This document shows, one piece after another, positions 32,674 through 39,253 of a stretch of DNA of 64,000 bases. The position numbers and the translations under genes were made by a program. The stretch comes from Escherichia coli (GTDB lineage Bacteria > Pseudomonadota > Gammaproteobacteria > Enterobacterales > Enterobacteriaceae). Numbering within the stretch: the stretch's first letter is position 1; the number at the start of each line of letters is the position of its first letter. The notes under the pieces are model-generated. The model worked only from the letters and a program-made list of their open reading frames with translations. It had not been told where the DNA came from and made no database searches. The stretch lies in NCBI RefSeq assembly GCF_044324875.1, contig NZ_CP172185.1; one strand, written 5' to 3'.

Positions 32674-33318
32674 TCAGCCGGCGCGCAGACCGGCTTCGGT
32701 GAAGGTGTATCCGTTGATGAGAAGGGCCTCATCCACGGCGTCGTCTGAGGTCAGCCAGTCGTACTCGTTTTCCAGTTGACTGTATAACCAGAAGGCAAGG
32801 TCCCGCAGGGCGTCACAGACAACGGTTTCCGCGCTGGCTGTCATTGCCTGTCCGGTCGGACTGTCCCGGGTGACGGTGATATCCATGCTGTACGGATGGC
32901 AGTAGTGTCCCCGGTGGCGGATTTCAGCCTGAAGCTGCCGGAAGTTACGCTTCTGCACCGCCTGCAGGGCATCCGCGATACGATGAAGCTCACGGTCCTG
33001 CGGGGCATATTCCCTGATTTTCCGGGGTGCCGCTGGCTGCCAGCGCCAGCGTCCTTCAAAACAGGCTCCGTCCCCCTGGCTGCAGAATCCGCTGAACCAG
33101 ATGCACGGCTCTTCCATAAACCTGCCGTTGCTGAGCCGGATAACACGCTGGCGGAGGGCAATCCCGACAATCTCACAGACCGTCCTGAAGTCCTCATACA
33201 CGTTTTCATACCAGTTGCTGTCAGCATGATGCTGACGGTACCATTCACGGGCCTTCTCCCGTGCTGTGGCGGAAAGTTCATCCGGCGTATACACGGTGGT
33301 GATGATAATTCTGCTCAT
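32674..33318 (-). CDS. hypothetical protein (about 214 aa) between yeeT-like and cbeA
   Basis: ORF 32674-33330; ATG at 33318 (MSRIIITTVYTPDELSATAREKAREWYRQHH...) with GGAG 6 nt upstream; protein-like composition, overlapping alternative-frame ORFs look non-coding. Confidence 0.55.
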   Translation of the reverse strand: MSRIIITTVYTPDELSATAREKAREWYRQHHADSNWYENVYEDFRTVCEIVGIALRQRVIRLSNGRFMEEPCIWFSGFCSQGDGACFEGRWRWQPAAPRKIREYAPQDRELHRIADALQAVQKRNFRQLQAEIRHRGHYCHPYSMDITVTRDSPTGQAMTASAETVVCDALRDLAFWLYSQLENEYDWLTSDDAVDEALLINGYTFTEAGLRAG

Positions 33319-33334
33319 CCGCATCTCCACTGAC

Positions 33335-33556
33335 TCAGTTCAGGGTGACGCTCATCAGCCGGACATACGGGCCAAAACTGTCCTTCCGGCGTTCGGCAAA
33401 CACGGCAAGCACACCGGGGATATCCTGCACTTCACGACCGGTATACGCTTCAGCACTGCCGTGCCAGCGGTATTTACCGGTACAGAACGGAAAAAGACGG
33501 GATGACGGATACTGACGGTGAACGCGCATGGCTTCACCACGGGTGATGATTTTCAT
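33335..33556 (-). CDS. yeeT: YeeT-like protein (DUF987)
   Basis: 73-aa ORF MKIITRGEAMRVHRQYPSSRLFPFCTGKYRWHGSAEAYTGREVQDIPGVLAVFAERRKD... Confidence 0.8.
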   Translation of the reverse strand: MKIITRGEAMRVHRQYPSSRLFPFCTGKYRWHGSAEAYTGREVQDIPGVLAVFAERRKDSFGPYVRLMSVTLN

Positions 33557-33645
33557 GAGAACAGTCCTCCTGAATGTGAAAGTGAGAAACAGCTGAGAAA
33601 GAGAAACTGAAGTGACAATATGAAGGTGGCTGTGACGGTGACGGA

Positions 33646-34122
33646 TTAAAGCAGACCGTGTTCCGCAAAGGAGAACACCCGGCTGCCACCGACTATCAAA
33701 TGGTCCGGTACCCGGATATCCACCAGGGCCAGTGCCTGTACCAGACGTTCAGTGATAAGGCGGTCTGCCTTACCGGGTGTGACCTCACCGGACGGATGAT
33801 TGTGCGCCAGCACCACGGCAGCGGCATTGTGGTACAGGGCGCGTTTAACCACCTCCCGGGGATGCACTTCCGTGCGGTTGATGGTGCCGGTGAAGAGGGT
33901 TTCACCGGCAATCAGCTGATTCTGGTTGTTCAGGTACAGCACCCGGAACTCTTCCCGCTCCAGTCCCGCCATGTGCAGAATCAGCCATTCCCGTGCCGCA
34001 TGCGTGGAGGTGAAGGCCACGCCGGGTTCATGAAGATGGCGGTCCAGGGTTTTCAGGGCCCGCTGAATGAGGCTGCGCTCGCCGGGCGTCATCGCGCCGG
34101 GCAGAAAGGAAATCTGTTGCAT
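33646..34122 (-). CDS. RadC-like JAB-domain protein (YeeS/YkfG/YfjY family)
   Basis: ORF 33646-34164 with JAMM-like motif HNHPSGEVTPGKADRLITERL. Confidence 0.85.
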   Translation of the reverse strand: MQQISFLPGAMTPGERSLIQRALKTLDRHLHEPGVAFTSTHAAREWLILHMAGLEREEFRVLYLNNQNQLIAGETLFTGTINRTEVHPREVVKRALYHNAAAVVLAHNHPSGEVTPGKADRLITERLVQALALVDIRVPDHLIVGGSRVFSFAEHGLL

Positions 34123-34133
34123 AACCTCACTCC

Positions 34134-34607
34134 TCAGTCGATGATGCGCATAATGGCGCTGCATTCCGGATGCTGCAGGGCGTAATCCCGCAGCCGGTAA
34201 TAATGGACCGTCATGGCATAATGCTCCGTACGGCAGGCGTGATGACTGTAGGCCATCAGGCAGGCGGCAATGCCGGCGGCTTCAGGGCTCATTTCCGCGC
34301 GGTTGCCGTTCATGGTGTTAAACAGTGCCCATGTTTCGTCATCATCGTCACCCGGTTCGGGAGCCATAAATGCGCCGCCGTTGTTCAGGGTGTACATATT
34401 CCAGATACCCCCACTGTAGTCTTCACACAGACGGTCCATCCAGCCGAAGATTCGGGGCTCAAGGGTCACCCACTGCGGAATGAGGCCAAAGTGCTGCGGC
34501 CAGAAGCTGATGCGCTGTTCGTCAGGCACTGGGCTGGCAACCAGCTGAGGTGGATTATTCCCGGATGCAGTGGTTGCGGAAACAGAGTCATGCGAAACCG
34601 TTTTCAT
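34134..34607 (-). CDS. antirestriction protein (YfjX/YafX, KlcA/ArdB-like family)
   Basis: ORF 34134-34709; family-conserved part starts at ATG 34607 (MKTVSHDSVSATTASG...); tail ...HHACRTEHYAMTVHYYRLRDYALQHPECSAIMRIID; upstream ORF extension runs into IS21 DNA. Confidence 0.8.
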   Translation of the reverse strand: MKTVSHDSVSATTASGNNPPQLVASPVPDEQRISFWPQHFGLIPQWVTLEPRIFGWMDRLCEDYSGGIWNMYTLNNGGAFMAPEPGDDDDETWALFNTMNGNRAEMSPEAAGIAACLMAYSHHACRTEHYAMTVHYYRLRDYALQHPECSAIMRIID

Positions 34608-34825
34608 AAGTGAAATCCTTAAGTGCAAAATGGCATCTGAATCGATCGCAGTTTGGCATTCGAATCGATCATGATTTGGCATCCATCTCCGATCACAGTT
34701 TGGCATCACAATCGATCACGATTTGGCATGCTTCCGATCATTGATTGGCATCCTGCCAGTCACTCCGGGAATTAACTCTTTTCACCACAGTCTCCATTGC
34801 CGTGTTTAAACCAGTGGAGACGTCA

Positions 34826-36391
34826 ATGTCCAGAAAGAGAAAATCCAGGAGCACTATGGAAACCTGTTTTAAGATCCTTCAGCTCAAGTTCGACAAGAAG
34901 CTGACTAACCGTTGTATCGGACTGACGTTACACATCAGCGCCTCAACCGTTTTTGAGGTTCTTGCCCGCTTCAAAGCCTCTTCTCTGTCATGGCCATTAC
35001 CTGCTGATATATCCCATGACACGCTGGAGAAACTCATTTTTCCGCCCAAAGACACCTTTGCATCAGAGCTTGTAATGCCTGACATGTTGTACTTCGATAC
35101 GGAAATGAGAAAACCAGGTGTGACGCGGCAACTGTTGTGGATGGAATACAAGGCACAGGCGGGTAACAAAGCGATGGGATACTCGCACTTCTGCCGTTGC
35201 TACCGGGAGTGGAAAAAAACGCGACGTCTCTCCATGCGCCAGGAGCATCGTGCCGGCGAAAAGCTTTTTATCGACTTCTGTGGTCCTACGGTTCCTGTTA
35301 TTAATCCGGACACCGGTGAGATACGCCGCGTGGCAATCTTCGTGGCCGTAATGGGGGCGTCCAACTATACCTACGTTGAAGCGTGCGAAGGTCAGGACAT
35401 GATGTCATGGTTAAATGCCCACAGCCGTTGCCTGACCTTCCTGGGCGGCGTACCGAAGCTGCTCATCCCCGATAACCTCAGAAGCGCAGTGAAAAAGGCC
35501 GATCGATATGAGCCTGTCATCAACGACAGTTATCAGGCACTGGCTGAGCACTATGGCACGGTTATCATCCCGGCCCGACCACGCAAACCTAAAGATAAAC
35601 CAAAAGCAGAAAACGGCGTCCTCATCGTTGAACGATGGCTTCTTGCCCGCATCCGTAATGAAACCTTCCACACGCTCAGGGCGCTGAATGCGCGCCTTAG
35701 GGAGTTACTGACAGACATGAATAACCGGCCAATGAAGGGGTACGGCAATCAAACCCGTGCAGAACGCTTCCGCATACTGGATGCGCCAGCACTCTCTCCG
35801 CTGCCTCTGGCACCTTATGAATACACGGAATACAAAGCTGTGAAGGTTGGCCCTGACTACCACGTTGAATATGCCCGTCACTGGTACTCCGTTCCACACG
35901 AACTGGTCGGTCAGCGTCTGTCACTGAAGGCGGGGCAGTCGGTGGTACAGCTCTGGCACAAGGGGCAGTGTGTGGCGCAACATCCGCGCAGCACACATGA
36001 ATATAAACACACAACCAATCCGCTTCACATGCCAGAGCGCCACCGGCAGCACGGGACATGGACACCGGAACGCCTGATCGAGCAGGGAAAACGTACGGGC
36101 CCGTCCACAGGCCGGGTGGTTGAATCCATGCTGAAGGCAAAACCCCATCCGGAACTGGCTTATCGTGCAGTTCTGGGGCTGCTGGCACTTCAGAAAAAAT
36201 ACGGCCCGGAACGGCTGGAAAAGGCCTGTTACGTTGCCCTGCACTATAACGCCCCTGACAGACGCTTTATCGACAATCTGCTGCGTCACCATCGGGAGAA
36301 CCTGGAGCTTCCATTATCCCGCCAGGGCGAACAACATCCGGCATATGCTTCAGAGCATGAAAACCTGCGTGGTCCGGGCTACTACCACTGA
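34826..36391 (+). CDS. istA: IS21-family transposase IstA
   Basis: Internal ATG of ORF 34745-36391 (MSRKRKSRSTMETCFKILQLKFDKK...) preceded by GGAGA; HTH plus DDE integrase core. Confidence 0.85.
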   Translation: MSRKRKSRSTMETCFKILQLKFDKKLTNRCIGLTLHISASTVFEVLARFKASSLSWPLPADISHDTLEKLIFPPKDTFASELVMPDMLYFDTEMRKPGVTRQLLWMEYKAQAGNKAMGYSHFCRCYREWKKTRRLSMRQEHRAGEKLFIDFCGPTVPVINPDTGEIRRVAIFVAVMGASNYTYVEACEGQDMMSWLNAHSRCLTFLGGVPKLLIPDNLRSAVKKADRYEPVINDSYQALAEHYGTVIIPARPRKPKDKPKAENGVLIVERWLLARIRNETFHTLRALNARLRELLTDMNNRPMKGYGNQTRAERFRILDAPALSPLPLAPYEYTEYKAVKVGPDYHVEYARHWYSVPHELVGQRLSLKAGQSVVQLWHKGQCVAQHPRSTHEYKHTTNPLHMPERHRQHGTWTPERLIEQGKRTGPSTGRVVESMLKAKPHPELAYRAVLGLLALQKKYGPERLEKACYVALHYNAPDRRFIDNLLRHHRENLELPLSRQGEQHPAYASEHENLRGPGYYH

Positions 36392-36407
36392 CAGAAGGAA
36401 CAACAGT

Positions 36408-37163
36408 ATGAGTGATAACCTGTTAAACAAACTGACCCAACTGAAACTCCCGGCGATGGCCGGGAGCCTGATACGGCAGCGGGAAACGCCTCAGACCTAC
36501 GACGAACTGTCGTTCGAGGAAAGGCTGACGCTGCTGGTTGATGACGAGCTTCTGAGCAGGGAAAACAGCCGTGTGGCACGGTTGAGAAAAAATGCCGGCC
36601 TGAAATACCAGGCAACACCGGAAGGGCTGCGCTATCCGGCCTCAAGAGGTCTGCGGGCTGAACAGATGAGAGAACTGCTGAACGGCCACTACATAACCCA
36701 CAGGAAAAACCTGCTGATAACCGGTCCGACAGGATGTGGCAAGAGCTGGATAGCCAATGCGCTGGGCGAACAGGCATGTCGACAGAAACACAGCGTCCGG
36801 TACTGTAGAACCGGGCGATTACTGGAACAACTGGCTCAGGGACGTGTTGATGGCAGCTGGCTGAAATATCTGAAACAGTTGCAAAAAATACAGGTTCTAA
36901 TCCTGGACGATCTGGGGCTGGAACAGTTAAGTAACGCCCAGTGTAATGACCTTCTGGAGCTCATAGAGGATCGTTACGGACAAAGCAGCACGATAGTGGT
37001 AAGCCAGTTCCCGGTAGATAAATGGCATGGTCTGATGGAGAACCCAACAACAGCAGATGCCATCCTGGACAGACTGGTACATAACTCACACCGAGTGGTC
37101 CTTCAGGGAGAGTCACTGAGGAAAAATCCCCCGGTAGTGGAAAGCAGCGAAAAAACGCGTTAA
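36408..37163 (+). CDS. istB: IS21-family helper ATPase IstB
   Basis: Internal ATG of ORF 36165-37163 (MSDNLLNKLTQLKLPAMAG...); Walker A GPTGCGKS. Confidence 0.85.
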   Translation: MSDNLLNKLTQLKLPAMAGSLIRQRETPQTYDELSFEERLTLLVDDELLSRENSRVARLRKNAGLKYQATPEGLRYPASRGLRAEQMRELLNGHYITHRKNLLITGPTGCGKSWIANALGEQACRQKHSVRYCRTGRLLEQLAQGRVDGSWLKYLKQLQKIQVLILDDLGLEQLSNAQCNDLLELIEDRYGQSSTIVVSQFPVDKWHGLMENPTTADAILDRLVHNSHRVVLQGESLRKNPPVVESSEKTR

Positions 37164-37262
37164 AAAGCGGTAGAAAAAGTTAAGTTCCCGGTTGATCGAA
37201 TGGATGCGAATCGCTGATCGGACTTCGATGCCAATCCGTGATCGAATAGAGCGGAATACGCA

Positions 37263-37330
37263 CTTAAGTGAATAAGTGAACAAGTGAATTAAGGAAATAA
37301 GTGAATGAATAAGTGAATAAGAGAGAAAAG
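37263..37330. repeat. tandem array of 8-bp AAGTGAAT-like units
   Basis: cttaagtgaataagtgaacaagtgaattaaggaaataagtgaatgaataagtgaataag; one more unit (aagtgaaat) lies on the other side of the IS21 element at 34609-34617. Confidence 0.7.
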
Positions 37331-37356
37331 ACAGGGCACTGACAGCGTCGCGTTAA

Positions 37357-38175
37357 TCAGCGCAGGCTCTCCAGCAGCGTTTCCGTCATCACCCACAATG
37401 CGCGGTTGAGCTTAATGTCGGTGTCAATGCTGTGAATGGCCCGGGTGTGGATACGTTTTCCTTTTGCACTGCGCCCCTGAAGACCACCCTTGAGCATATT
37501 CTCCTGGATGGTCTGATAAGCACTCCACAGGTCCTTACCGTAATCCTCCCGGCGTCGTGGCGTCAGAATGTCAGCGGTGGTGACGGGCTGATGTTCGTCA
37601 CCATAACGGTAAGTCAGGGCGGCCTGTGCCAGCGCTTGGCGAGCCGGTGGTGGTAAAATCAGCGACTGCATGGCATCACGCTTCTCCTCAATCCGGTCAA
37701 AAACCCCCACCACTTCGTAAGCCCCTTCGATGACCCTGTCCACCACGTTTCCCCGGTGTGGCACACGCACCTCTCCGAGAGACTGACCGCAGACGCACCC
37801 GTTCTGACACACGAACCGGAAGTAACCCGGCAGCATCTGGTAGCTGGAGGTACCGTCATGGGAGTTGAGCAGAATGATTTCCGGGACATGCTGCCCGTTT
37901 ATCTCCCCGTCACGGCGCAGACGCAGCATGTGCTTTGTGTATCCCCGACGTCCCGGGTCCCGCACGCGGGTCTGGCAGGCAAAGAAGGGCTGAAAGCCTT
38001 CCCGCTGCAGGCTTTCCAGCACGGTAATGGTGGGGATGTATGTATAGTTCCGGCTCCGGGAGGTGTGCTTATCTTCCCCGAAAATCCCGGGCACATGGTG
38101 CATCAGTTCTTCATGTGTCAGCGGACGGTCACGGCGTATCTGGTTCGCATAACCAAAACGACTGGCTAATCGCAT
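37357..38175 (-). CDS. DUF932/UPF0380 family protein (YfjQ/YafZ-like)
   Basis: 272-aa ORF MRLASRFGYANQIRRDRPLTHEELMHHVPGIFGEDKHTSRSRNYTYIPTITVLESLQREGFQPFF... Confidence 0.7.
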   Translation of the reverse strand: MRLASRFGYANQIRRDRPLTHEELMHHVPGIFGEDKHTSRSRNYTYIPTITVLESLQREGFQPFFACQTRVRDPGRRGYTKHMLRLRRDGEINGQHVPEIILLNSHDGTSSYQMLPGYFRFVCQNGCVCGQSLGEVRVPHRGNVVDRVIEGAYEVVGVFDRIEEKRDAMQSLILPPPARQALAQAALTYRYGDEHQPVTTADILTPRRREDYGKDLWSAYQTIQENMLKGGLQGRSAKGKRIHTRAIHSIDTDIKLNRALWVMTETLLESLR

Positions 38176-38699
38176 ACTTTGCTCCTTATCAGTGGTTAAG
38201 ACTGACTGACGTAATCAATGAAAAAGCCGCGTCTCCCGGAGAAGACGCGGCCTGATGGATGAAATGAATGAGGGTTTACCGAAGTCCTTCAGCATTGAGG
38301 TGAAGCCGCCGGAAATGTGTTCCCGGGTCATCTTCGATAAATACATTGCGGTAAGCTGTTATGGCAGAAACCGCCTGCACGTGTGAGAAAGGTCTTCGCT
38401 TAAGACGTACTCTGTGTGATCCGGTATTTCTGGTTTCTCCTGATTAATAGCCTCTGCCACAAAGTGTGGAAGAGGCTGAATCATGGTATTTACTTCTTTC
38501 ATCATGGTGGTATTCCGGTGTATTAACCGGGATCTGATTCCGGAAAATAAGGAATAAACGTAAAGGAGCAGAATGCTCGTTATGCCAGACACGCAGGGGG
38601 TAATGCCTCTTCCGGGTGGTTAACCATATTGCCGGGATGTGATGCTTCATATTCCATAACAGAGCGTTGCCTGATGATACTGACTACCAGTGGTTTGAT

Positions 38700-38927
38700 T
38701 CACATATTGGTCGCTGCCCGTTGCTGTACGCCGGCGGCGAAAATGATCTCCAGAGCATTCTGATCGATAACACGGGCCAGATTCGCGTTCAGATTTTCAG
38801 TTTCATTTTCGGTCAGCAGGAAACTGACGGCAAGCCACGTCACCTGCTCCTGAATCATGGCAGGAATTTTGATGCGCTCCTCTTCAGCCAGAGTACCGGC
38901 AATTTTTCCTGATACCACTGCAATCAT
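38700..38927 (-). CDS. hypothetical small protein (75 aa)
   Basis: ORF MIAVVSGKIAGTLAEEERIKIPAMIQEQ...; start overlaps stop of upstream 76-aa ORF by 4 bp. Confidence 0.3.
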   Translation of the reverse strand: MIAVVSGKIAGTLAEEERIKIPAMIQEQVTWLAVSFLLTENETENLNANLARVIDQNALEIIFAAGVQQRAATNM

Positions 38928-39154
38928 TCCTCCCGGAACGCCGCCCGCCAGCGAATATGAAATAACCGGGGTATGCGTTCAGTGATACAGCCAGCCAGTA
39001 AAGCCGGACCGGACAGACACAGCAATATGAGTCCTGCCAGCACAGACGCTGTGCTGGTTAATGCTCTGAACAAAAAGCGAAGAATGGCAAATCCTGCGAT
39101 AAGCAGGATCAGCACGCCGACTATCTGTAACATAGTCCCCCTGATAAATATCAT
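38924..39154 (-). CDS. hypothetical small membrane protein (76 aa)
   Basis: ORF with two hydrophobic segments (LQIVGVLILLIAGFAILRFLF, ASVLAGLILLCLSGPALLAGC) immediately downstream of flu. Confidence 0.3.
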   Translation of the reverse strand: MIFIRGTMLQIVGVLILLIAGFAILRFLFRALTSTASVLAGLILLCLSGPALLAGCITERIPRLFHIRWRAAFREE

Positions 39155-39253
39155 GTTATTGTTAATGCCAGCGAATGTGGCGTTGAATATCCGTTGCGCC
39201 GGTCCGGGTCCCGATCATGATGACCGGGACCACAAAGAGGCAATGCAGAATTG

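Follow-up and report, generated by a model that had tools for sequence, protein, structure and literature searches.

The locus analyzed here raises the question of what a tract of tandem octamers is doing at the edge of an IS21-family insertion sequence (IS), directly in front of a gene for an antirestriction protein in a genomic island of Escherichia coli. A preliminary description of the 64,000-nucleotide stretch of DNA under study (hereafter the window) had counted at least six tandem copies of AAGTGAA(T/C) immediately to the right of the IS and one more on its left flank. It had placed the array upstream of an operon for antirestriction, RadC and toxin-antitoxin proteins, and had offered two roles for it: binding sites for a regulator specific to the module, or a slipped-strand contingency locus. 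The explanation that we think probably right is that the tract is what is left of an octanucleotide VNTR, specific to one lineage and located in an intercistronic leader, a remnant that has decayed, has been frozen and has been cut by the IS, and that at most tunes expression. As it stands, the array does not look like the operator of a dedicated regulator, nor does it look like an on/off switch. The features involved are the following, with their coordinates in the window (L numbers are our labels for the loci compared).

34134-34607, minus strand: antirestriction gene (PF03230, 157 aa), which the IS now parts from the DUF932 gene and the array
34608-34615, minus strand: spacer of 8 nt between the Shine-Dalgarno sequence and the ATG, TTTCACTT, which reads AAGTGAAA on the plus strand
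34618-34623, no strand: left target duplication CTTAAG, overlapping the Shine-Dalgarno sequence (TAAGGA, minus strand, 34616-34621)
34624-37262, plus strand: IS21-family element of 2,639 bp with TG...CA ends
34745-36391, plus strand: istA ORF, within the IS
36165-37163, plus strand: istB ORF, within the IS
37263-37268, no strand: right target duplication CTTAAG, overlapping the first array unit
37266-37318, minus strand: decayed 7-unit octanucleotide array with five exact units, a 4-nt half unit and a 9-nt degenerate unit; its reading on the mRNA strand is ATTCACTT ATTC ATTCACTT ATTTCCTTA ATTCACTT GTTCACTT ATTCACTT, the same as in the empty-site allele L001
37319-37356, minus strand: remaining intercistronic spacer, made up of a pyrimidine tract (CTTTTCTCTCTT on the mRNA strand) and the 26 nt after the DUF932 stop codon
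37357-38175, minus strand: DUF932 gene (PF06067), the operon neighbour upstream, with its TGA stop codon at 37357-37359

Read on the plus strand, positions 37263-37330 are CTT AAGTGAAT AAGTGAAC AAGTGAAT TAAGGAAAT AAGTGAAT GAAT AAGTGAAT AAGAGAGAAAAG. Five octamers match AAGTGAA(T/C) exactly (starts at 37266, 37274, 37282, 37299 and 37311) and two units are degenerate, the 9-nt TAAGGAAAT at 37290-37298 and the 4-nt half unit GAAT at 37307-37310, while AAGAGAGA is part of the neighbouring pyrimidine tract and falls outside the array. The location first given for the array is therefore retained, and the count of at least six copies is replaced by five exact and two degenerate ones. The unit on the coding strand is ATTCACTT. 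TRF gave a period of 8 with 7.5 copies and a score of 56. The exact motif was found nine times on both strands of the 64-kb window against 4.1 expected, and five of these nine matches fall inside 53 bp. The octamer array is a real tandem repeat, clustered beyond chance. The supposed extra copy on the left flank is a different matter, being the spacer between the Shine-Dalgarno sequence and the ATG (34608-34615) and not an array unit; it is ancestral, since a paralog that has no array carries a copy too (AAGGATTTCACTCATG in L006).

The array fills an untranslated spacer of 104 nt that extends on the minus strand from the stop codon of DUF932 to the Shine-Dalgarno sequence of the antirestriction gene. 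On the coding strand this spacer reads TGA ttaacgcgacgctgtcagtgccctgtCTTTTCTCTCTT ATTCACTT ATTC ATTCACTT ATTTCCTTA ATTCACTT GTTCACTT ATTCACTT AAGGA TTTCACTT ATG, where the AAGGA Shine-Dalgarno sequence stands 8 nt ahead of the antirestriction ATG. The array was correctly described as lying 5' of the antirestriction gene; rather than upstream of an operon, it is located in a spacer between two genes of the same (minus) strand. To the left of the antirestriction gene are found RadC, DUF987, a 214-aa protein, the YeeU/CbtA toxin-antitoxin pair, DUF5983, DUF957 and DUF4942. The program-made list of ORFs has a GTG-started antirestriction ORF of 191 aa (34134-34709, minus strand) that runs into the IS. 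The true start is the ATG at 34607 (157 aa), matching the empty-site alleles.

The module is carried by a CP4-like island located at serX, a tRNA gene of E. coli. The island adjoins tRNA-Ser(GGA) at 29941-30028, and the chromosomal flank (csgDEFG-ycdXYZ-ghrA) is 99.5% identical to that of E. coli strain 135; going by the gene order established beside ghrA, we take this tRNA gene to be serX and the island to be the serX island. Between DUF905 and DUF932 there is a strong terminator-like hairpin (38224-38253, minus strand, a 13-bp stem with 8 G-C pairs and a T-run). Only some 48 nt separate it from the start codon of DUF932, so that there is scant room for a DUF932 promoter and the transcription units of the module are uncertain. 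Further upstream in the island is an ORF of 743 aa (39254-41485, minus strand). At the equivalent position related loci encode a product, also of 743 aa, in which AIDA, Pertactin and Autotransporter domains are present, and the ORF appears shorter than the Ag43/Cah gene of strain 135, a pseudogene of 3,120 nt. Next come ORFs of 290, 512, 115 and 133 aa (to 44746), the sizes of which resemble those of the IS66-type ORFs of L054. Identified by size and position, the ORFs at 39254-44746 suggest, together with the IS21 insertion, an IS-rich and partly degraded island.

We have looked for the array at the equivalent position of paralogous modules. Of 5,426 complete E. coli genomes, 4,966 have the junction between DUF932 and the antirestriction gene, at about 14,800 places in all, and nearly all of these places align only outside the array, the similarity ending at the DUF932 stop codon. 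The tandem array was absent from all six E. coli paralog types sampled (L002-L007), the spacers of which measure 54-337 nt and contain, ahead of the Shine-Dalgarno sequence, no more than one ATTCA(C/T)-like unit each. It was equally absent from the 14 homologous loci on IMG/VR viral contigs that were recovered via protein (L061-L074). In L006, one of the single-unit spacers, the sequence reads ...CTCATTTATTCACATTACAAGGATTTCACTCATG, and L006 and L007 look like the single-unit ancestral state (...CTCATTTATTCACATTACAAGGATTTCAC...). Judging from the spacers compared, the array is a derived amplification limited to one sub-lineage. Identity of at least 91% across the spacer, taking the best place per genome, was found in 11 of the 5,426 complete genomes, and a twelfth copy of the array is the one in the second, sister-type module of strain LH50-c. 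This strain has one copy of the window type and one of the sister type with six units (L009, L058), and the assembly GCA_974490245.1 has two copies of the window type in differing upstream contexts (L025, L026). A scan with TTCACTTAAGGATTTCAC of 100,044 species-representative genomes gave 12 matches, none of them enterobacterial and their number near a rough chance estimate, and scans for the array gave no match in JGI metagenomes or among IMG/VR viruses. The two variants of the antirestriction protein share one 90% cluster, in which every name listed is E. coli. As for the literature, a search for the unit dimer found no paper containing it, and searches for VNTR or the gene names of the module combined with antirestriction returned nothing relevant.

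The array occurs in two alleles, and they behave differently. For the interrupted array of the window type, eight complete genomes showed 100% identity over 551 bp, and in two more its length was equal. A further 17 loci of this type, reached by way of the exact antirestriction and DUF932 proteins, were identical bar one C>T variant, a comparison of length that covered about 20 of the roughly 1,000 contigs carrying the window-type allele. No variation in length was found for the window-type copy in these 10 complete genomes and 17 loci. The sister allele is 91% identical to the window type over the 551-bp junction region, and its antirestriction variant is present on 149 contigs against 997 for that of the window type. 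Its array is perfect, CTCTTATCT(ATTCACTT)nAAGGATTTCACTTATG, and among 16 assemblies the number of units (n) was 3 (three assemblies), 4 (two), 5 (six), 6 (two) or 9 (three), with spacers of 77, 85, 93, 101 and 125 nt for n of 3, 4, 5, 6 and 9, respectively. For L055, TRF reported 9.2 perfect copies and a score of 148. Head-to-tail short units above chance are thus a property of the window array and the sister array alike.

The flanks of the sister arrays are nearly invariable. Compared with L046, the 834 nt of immediate flank had no mismatch in five of seven loci, one mismatch in another and five in the last, and pairs of sister loci with 4 differences or fewer in 5.2 kb had n of 5 against 9 and of 6 against 5; these copy-number differences are between assemblies, and some values of n may be shared by descent. 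Differences of whole units over near-identical flanks indicate that the sister array is a true slipped-strand VNTR, changing by replication slippage. Set against this perfect form, the window allele has seven units, a 4-nt deletion, a unit with a substitution plus an insertion and an A>G change. It is stable because it retains no run of more than two near-perfect units: the window copy is decayed and frozen. The proposal of a slipped-strand locus therefore holds for the repeat family (n of 3-9 in the sister allele) and fails for the copy in the window, whose length is constant. The preliminary description had also named what would count against it, an invariant repeat number and absence from paralogous modules; this is what we found for the window allele and the distant paralogs, and not for the sister allele.

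The islands with the sister allele contain a second tandem repeat, (AAACCAC)3 followed by (AAACTCA)n, located at 1698-1768 in L055, 1712-1760 in L053 and 557-605 in L060, and with no counterpart in the window. The perfect run of (AAACTCA)n has n of 5 in L055 and of 7 in L053 and L060; the seven remaining loci retrieved with these lack the repeat altogether. In L055 the heptamer repeat is intergenic, with a YagK/YfjJ-like gene on one side and a gene for 290 aa on the other.

The history that accounts for these data starts with a single ATTCAC-containing unit just 5' of the AAGGA Shine-Dalgarno sequence, which was amplified into an array and which related modules still have once. As long as it is perfect, the array expands and contracts by replication slippage, as in the sister allele. 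Small mutations broke the array of the window and its length changes stopped, and an ISSso4-like element of the IS21 family then entered the interval from the array to the Shine-Dalgarno sequence, duplicating CTTAAG. The array would be transcribed within a messenger common to DUF932 and the antirestriction gene, as a near G-free, pyrimidine-rich leader. We infer this co-transcription from the fact that neither a terminator nor a promoter is predicted between the two genes. Any effect of the array would then be a graded change in the expression of the antirestriction, RadC and toxin-antitoxin genes, possibly through leader length, the access of ribosomes or S1, or Rho loading. The data are fitted just as well by an array that is a neutral by-product of slippage. 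Since the IS parts the downstream genes from DUF932 and the array, any effect that the array had on them has probably been disabled in the window.

Several analyses bear on how such a leader could act. In L001, L047 and the window a scan with a strict sigma-70 consensus, which would miss weak or alternative promoters, gave no promoter-like site within the array or beside it, and by eye there was no TAnnnT hexamer in the array on either strand. No terminator was found between DUF932 and the antirestriction gene in the window type; in the sister allele the same interval gave one weak, G-T-rich candidate of 7 pairs. There is no in-frame start codon upstream of the antirestriction ATG, so the array is non-coding and changes in its units cannot shift a reading frame. 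A switch by coding or frameshift is ruled out by this and by the position of the array after the DUF932 stop codon. The repeat is found neither in a reading frame nor between -35 and -10 hexamers, and for the contingency locus first proposed, in the sense of an adaptive on/off switch, there is no support, the array being non-coding and outside promoter hexamers. Rfam had no match at E <= 1 over 33000-39500. The RNA of the array is predicted to be mostly unpaired, the MFE models pairing a few units with GUGGGUGA or GGUGAGUA at the 3' end of DUF932, and the folding z-scores against shuffled sequence were -0.38 and +0.06. A special RNA structure, or a hairpin like that of hmw1A, was accordingly rejected, the folding energy being no better than for shuffled sequence (z about 0). 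The G-poorest 78-nt stretch of the spacer has 7 G at n of 3, 2 G at n of 6 and no G at n of 9, with about 20 C. This excess of C over G is compatible with Rho (rut) loading. One published heuristic for rut sites has a C spacing of 11-13 nt, which by our own arithmetic is unattainable in the perfect array. We also noted that TTATTCACT resembles a DnaA box (TTATNCACA, 8 of 9 positions), a reading that is implausible because the boxes would overlap at a period of 8 bp. Conceivable roles of a more speculative sort are those of a translational enhancer complementary to 16S rRNA and of RNase E sites.

The alternative that survives best sees the variation as adaptive. According to it the array is a rheostat, a contingency-like locus in which the number of G-free octamers sets the output of the antirestriction, RadC and toxin-antitoxin genes and whose mutability has been selected. 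A longer untranslated RNA with more C than G might load Rho better, or the access of ribosomes or S1 might shift. We consider this unlikely, although n does range from 3 to 9 over near-identical flanks, the tract is untranslated and directly 5' of the Shine-Dalgarno sequence, where its length could matter, and the G-free stretch lengthens with n. The second variable repeat, the heptamer of the sister-allele islands, is also in its favor. The known model is that of Haemophilus influenzae hmw1A and hmw2A, where an SSR, (ATCTTTC)n, is located in the transcribed 5'-UTR and expression falls in inverse proportion to the number of repeats; there a tract of at least 11 repeats forms a long hairpin with a G-rich arm, and this hairpin is cut by RNase III (PMC12721329). 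Both systems have a pyrimidine-rich unit of 7-8 nt on the sense strand, untranslated and upstream of a start codon, with a number of copies that varies between isolates. They differ in that our array has n of 3-9, folds no better than shuffled sequence (z about 0) and stands between two genes, whereas the hmw tract is downstream of a mapped promoter. The same points, no hairpin or structure signal of the hmw1A type and no promoter context, weigh against an adaptive rheostat. So does the sampling of other module lineages, in which no independent array appeared. Besides, the commonest allele of the array (997 contigs versus 149) is the one that is decayed and invariant, which argues against selection for mutability. 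The narrower claim that a hypermutable leader tract of 3-9 ATTCACTT units is a rheostat for the anti-defence genes of the island, with the window allele as its mutation-locked version, seems to us slightly more doubtful again. If true, such a rheostat would be an SSR-based tuning device for the anti-defence genes of a mobile element in E. coli, a species that is thought to rely little on SSR contingency loci.

A second alternative, that of an operator or iteron array bound by an island-encoded regulator of the antirestriction operon, for example one of the ribbon-helix-helix type, we judge improbable. Proteins of this type do bind tandem repeats, which are metboxes of 8 bp for MetJ and arrays of WATCACW heptads, 7 bp each, for the omega repressor. 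The octamers share with such operators the contiguous, regularly spaced direct repeats of 7-8 bp, and their core TTCAC(T) resembles ATCAC(W); in addition, there are genes for ParD-type antitoxins at the end of the sister islands. However, operators of this kind overlap with promoters and are kept in every element that has their regulator, and our array shows neither property. It is missing from modules with the same set of genes (L002-L007, L061-L074), no promoter-like site is adjacent to it, and its units decay and its copy number drifts from 3 to 9 without constraint. Nor were other clusters of the motif found in the island or the window, where a search allowing one mismatch gave 68 matches against 56.7 expected. 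By the measures of conservation, additional sites and promoter context an operator is not supported by the sequences compared, and the suggestion of binding sites for a regulator finds no support in the 20 paralog spacers read, none of which has the array, in the distribution of the motif, which is not enriched elsewhere in the window, or in the surroundings of the array, which have no promoter context.

It could also be asked whether the IS is responsible for the repeats. The interrupting element is an ISSso4-like member of the IS21 family. It ends in TGCAAAA...ACGCA, is flanked by a 6-bp duplication and is 99.7% identical to the copy in L011, which is annotated with an IS21 family transposase gene and an IstB of the ISSso4 family. 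With its istA and istB, TG...CA termini, left-end repeats and 6-bp duplication it resembles the IS21 family (ISSso4, IS100-like) without any relevant difference. At its left end there are direct repeats of 23 bp and 47 bp (34631-34752, TGGCATC...GATCAC...), which we take to be the repeated terminal sequences of IS21-family elements and no feature of the host. The insertion point is precisely where the last array unit gives way to the Shine-Dalgarno sequence, and among the 5,426 complete E. coli genomes of the collection none has the insertion of the window at this locus. Eight of them have the locus free of the IS and 100% identical to the window from the IS boundary onward, and empty-site alleles such as L001 show a single CTTAAG where the window has the IS and two. 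Since these empty sites carry the full array and one CTTAAG, the IS landed in an array that already existed, as the preliminary description had it.

A 99.7%-identical IS has inserted independently in E. coli O166:H15 JNE21-003 (L011, 1475-4113), in a paralogous module without the array, where it is located about 45 bp into the antirestriction coding sequence with a duplication of GTTACG. That two insertions fall within about 60 bp of the antirestriction start could be due to target preference, selection or coincidence. The position of the IS precisely at the edge of the array and this second insertion so close to the start codon are what could be adduced for repeats made by an IS21-family element, or attracting it specifically. 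We hold this to be very improbable, as the complete array is present in IS-free alleles, and the insertion of L011 is in an array-less module, inside a coding sequence and at another target. The empty sites largely refute it, and the IS, an ordinary member of its family, is the context of the repeat and not its cause. The least credible explanation, to which we assign next to no weight, is an AT-rich word clustered by chance in an AT-rich region, already refuted by five exact octamers within 53 bp, when about 4 would be expected over the 128 kb of both strands, and by the TRF scores of the window and sister arrays.

What is left is a lineage-specific octanucleotide VNTR of a well-known kind. 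Bacterial VNTR loci mutate by slipped-strand mispairing, and loci with units of 6-9 bp are used for the MLVA typing of E. coli. The present array resembles them in its short head-to-tail units, in the n of 3-9 over constant flanks of the sister allele and in the interruptions that stabilise the tract of the window. It differs from MLVA loci in being on a mobile island in a minority of strains and, in the window, invariant. In our search for papers containing the unit dimer it was not found among the typing loci described. By itself the window copy is of little import, being decayed, invariant and severed by the IS from the downstream gene. The locus could nevertheless be of use for typing strains with this lineage of the island. 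The pair formed by the perfect and the interrupted allele shows point interruptions freezing a VNTR, and the sister series with n of 3, 4, 5, 6 and 9 before the ribosome-binding site of the antirestriction gene is a natural set for asking whether leader length or G-free RNA tunes the anti-defence and toxin-antitoxin genes of the island.
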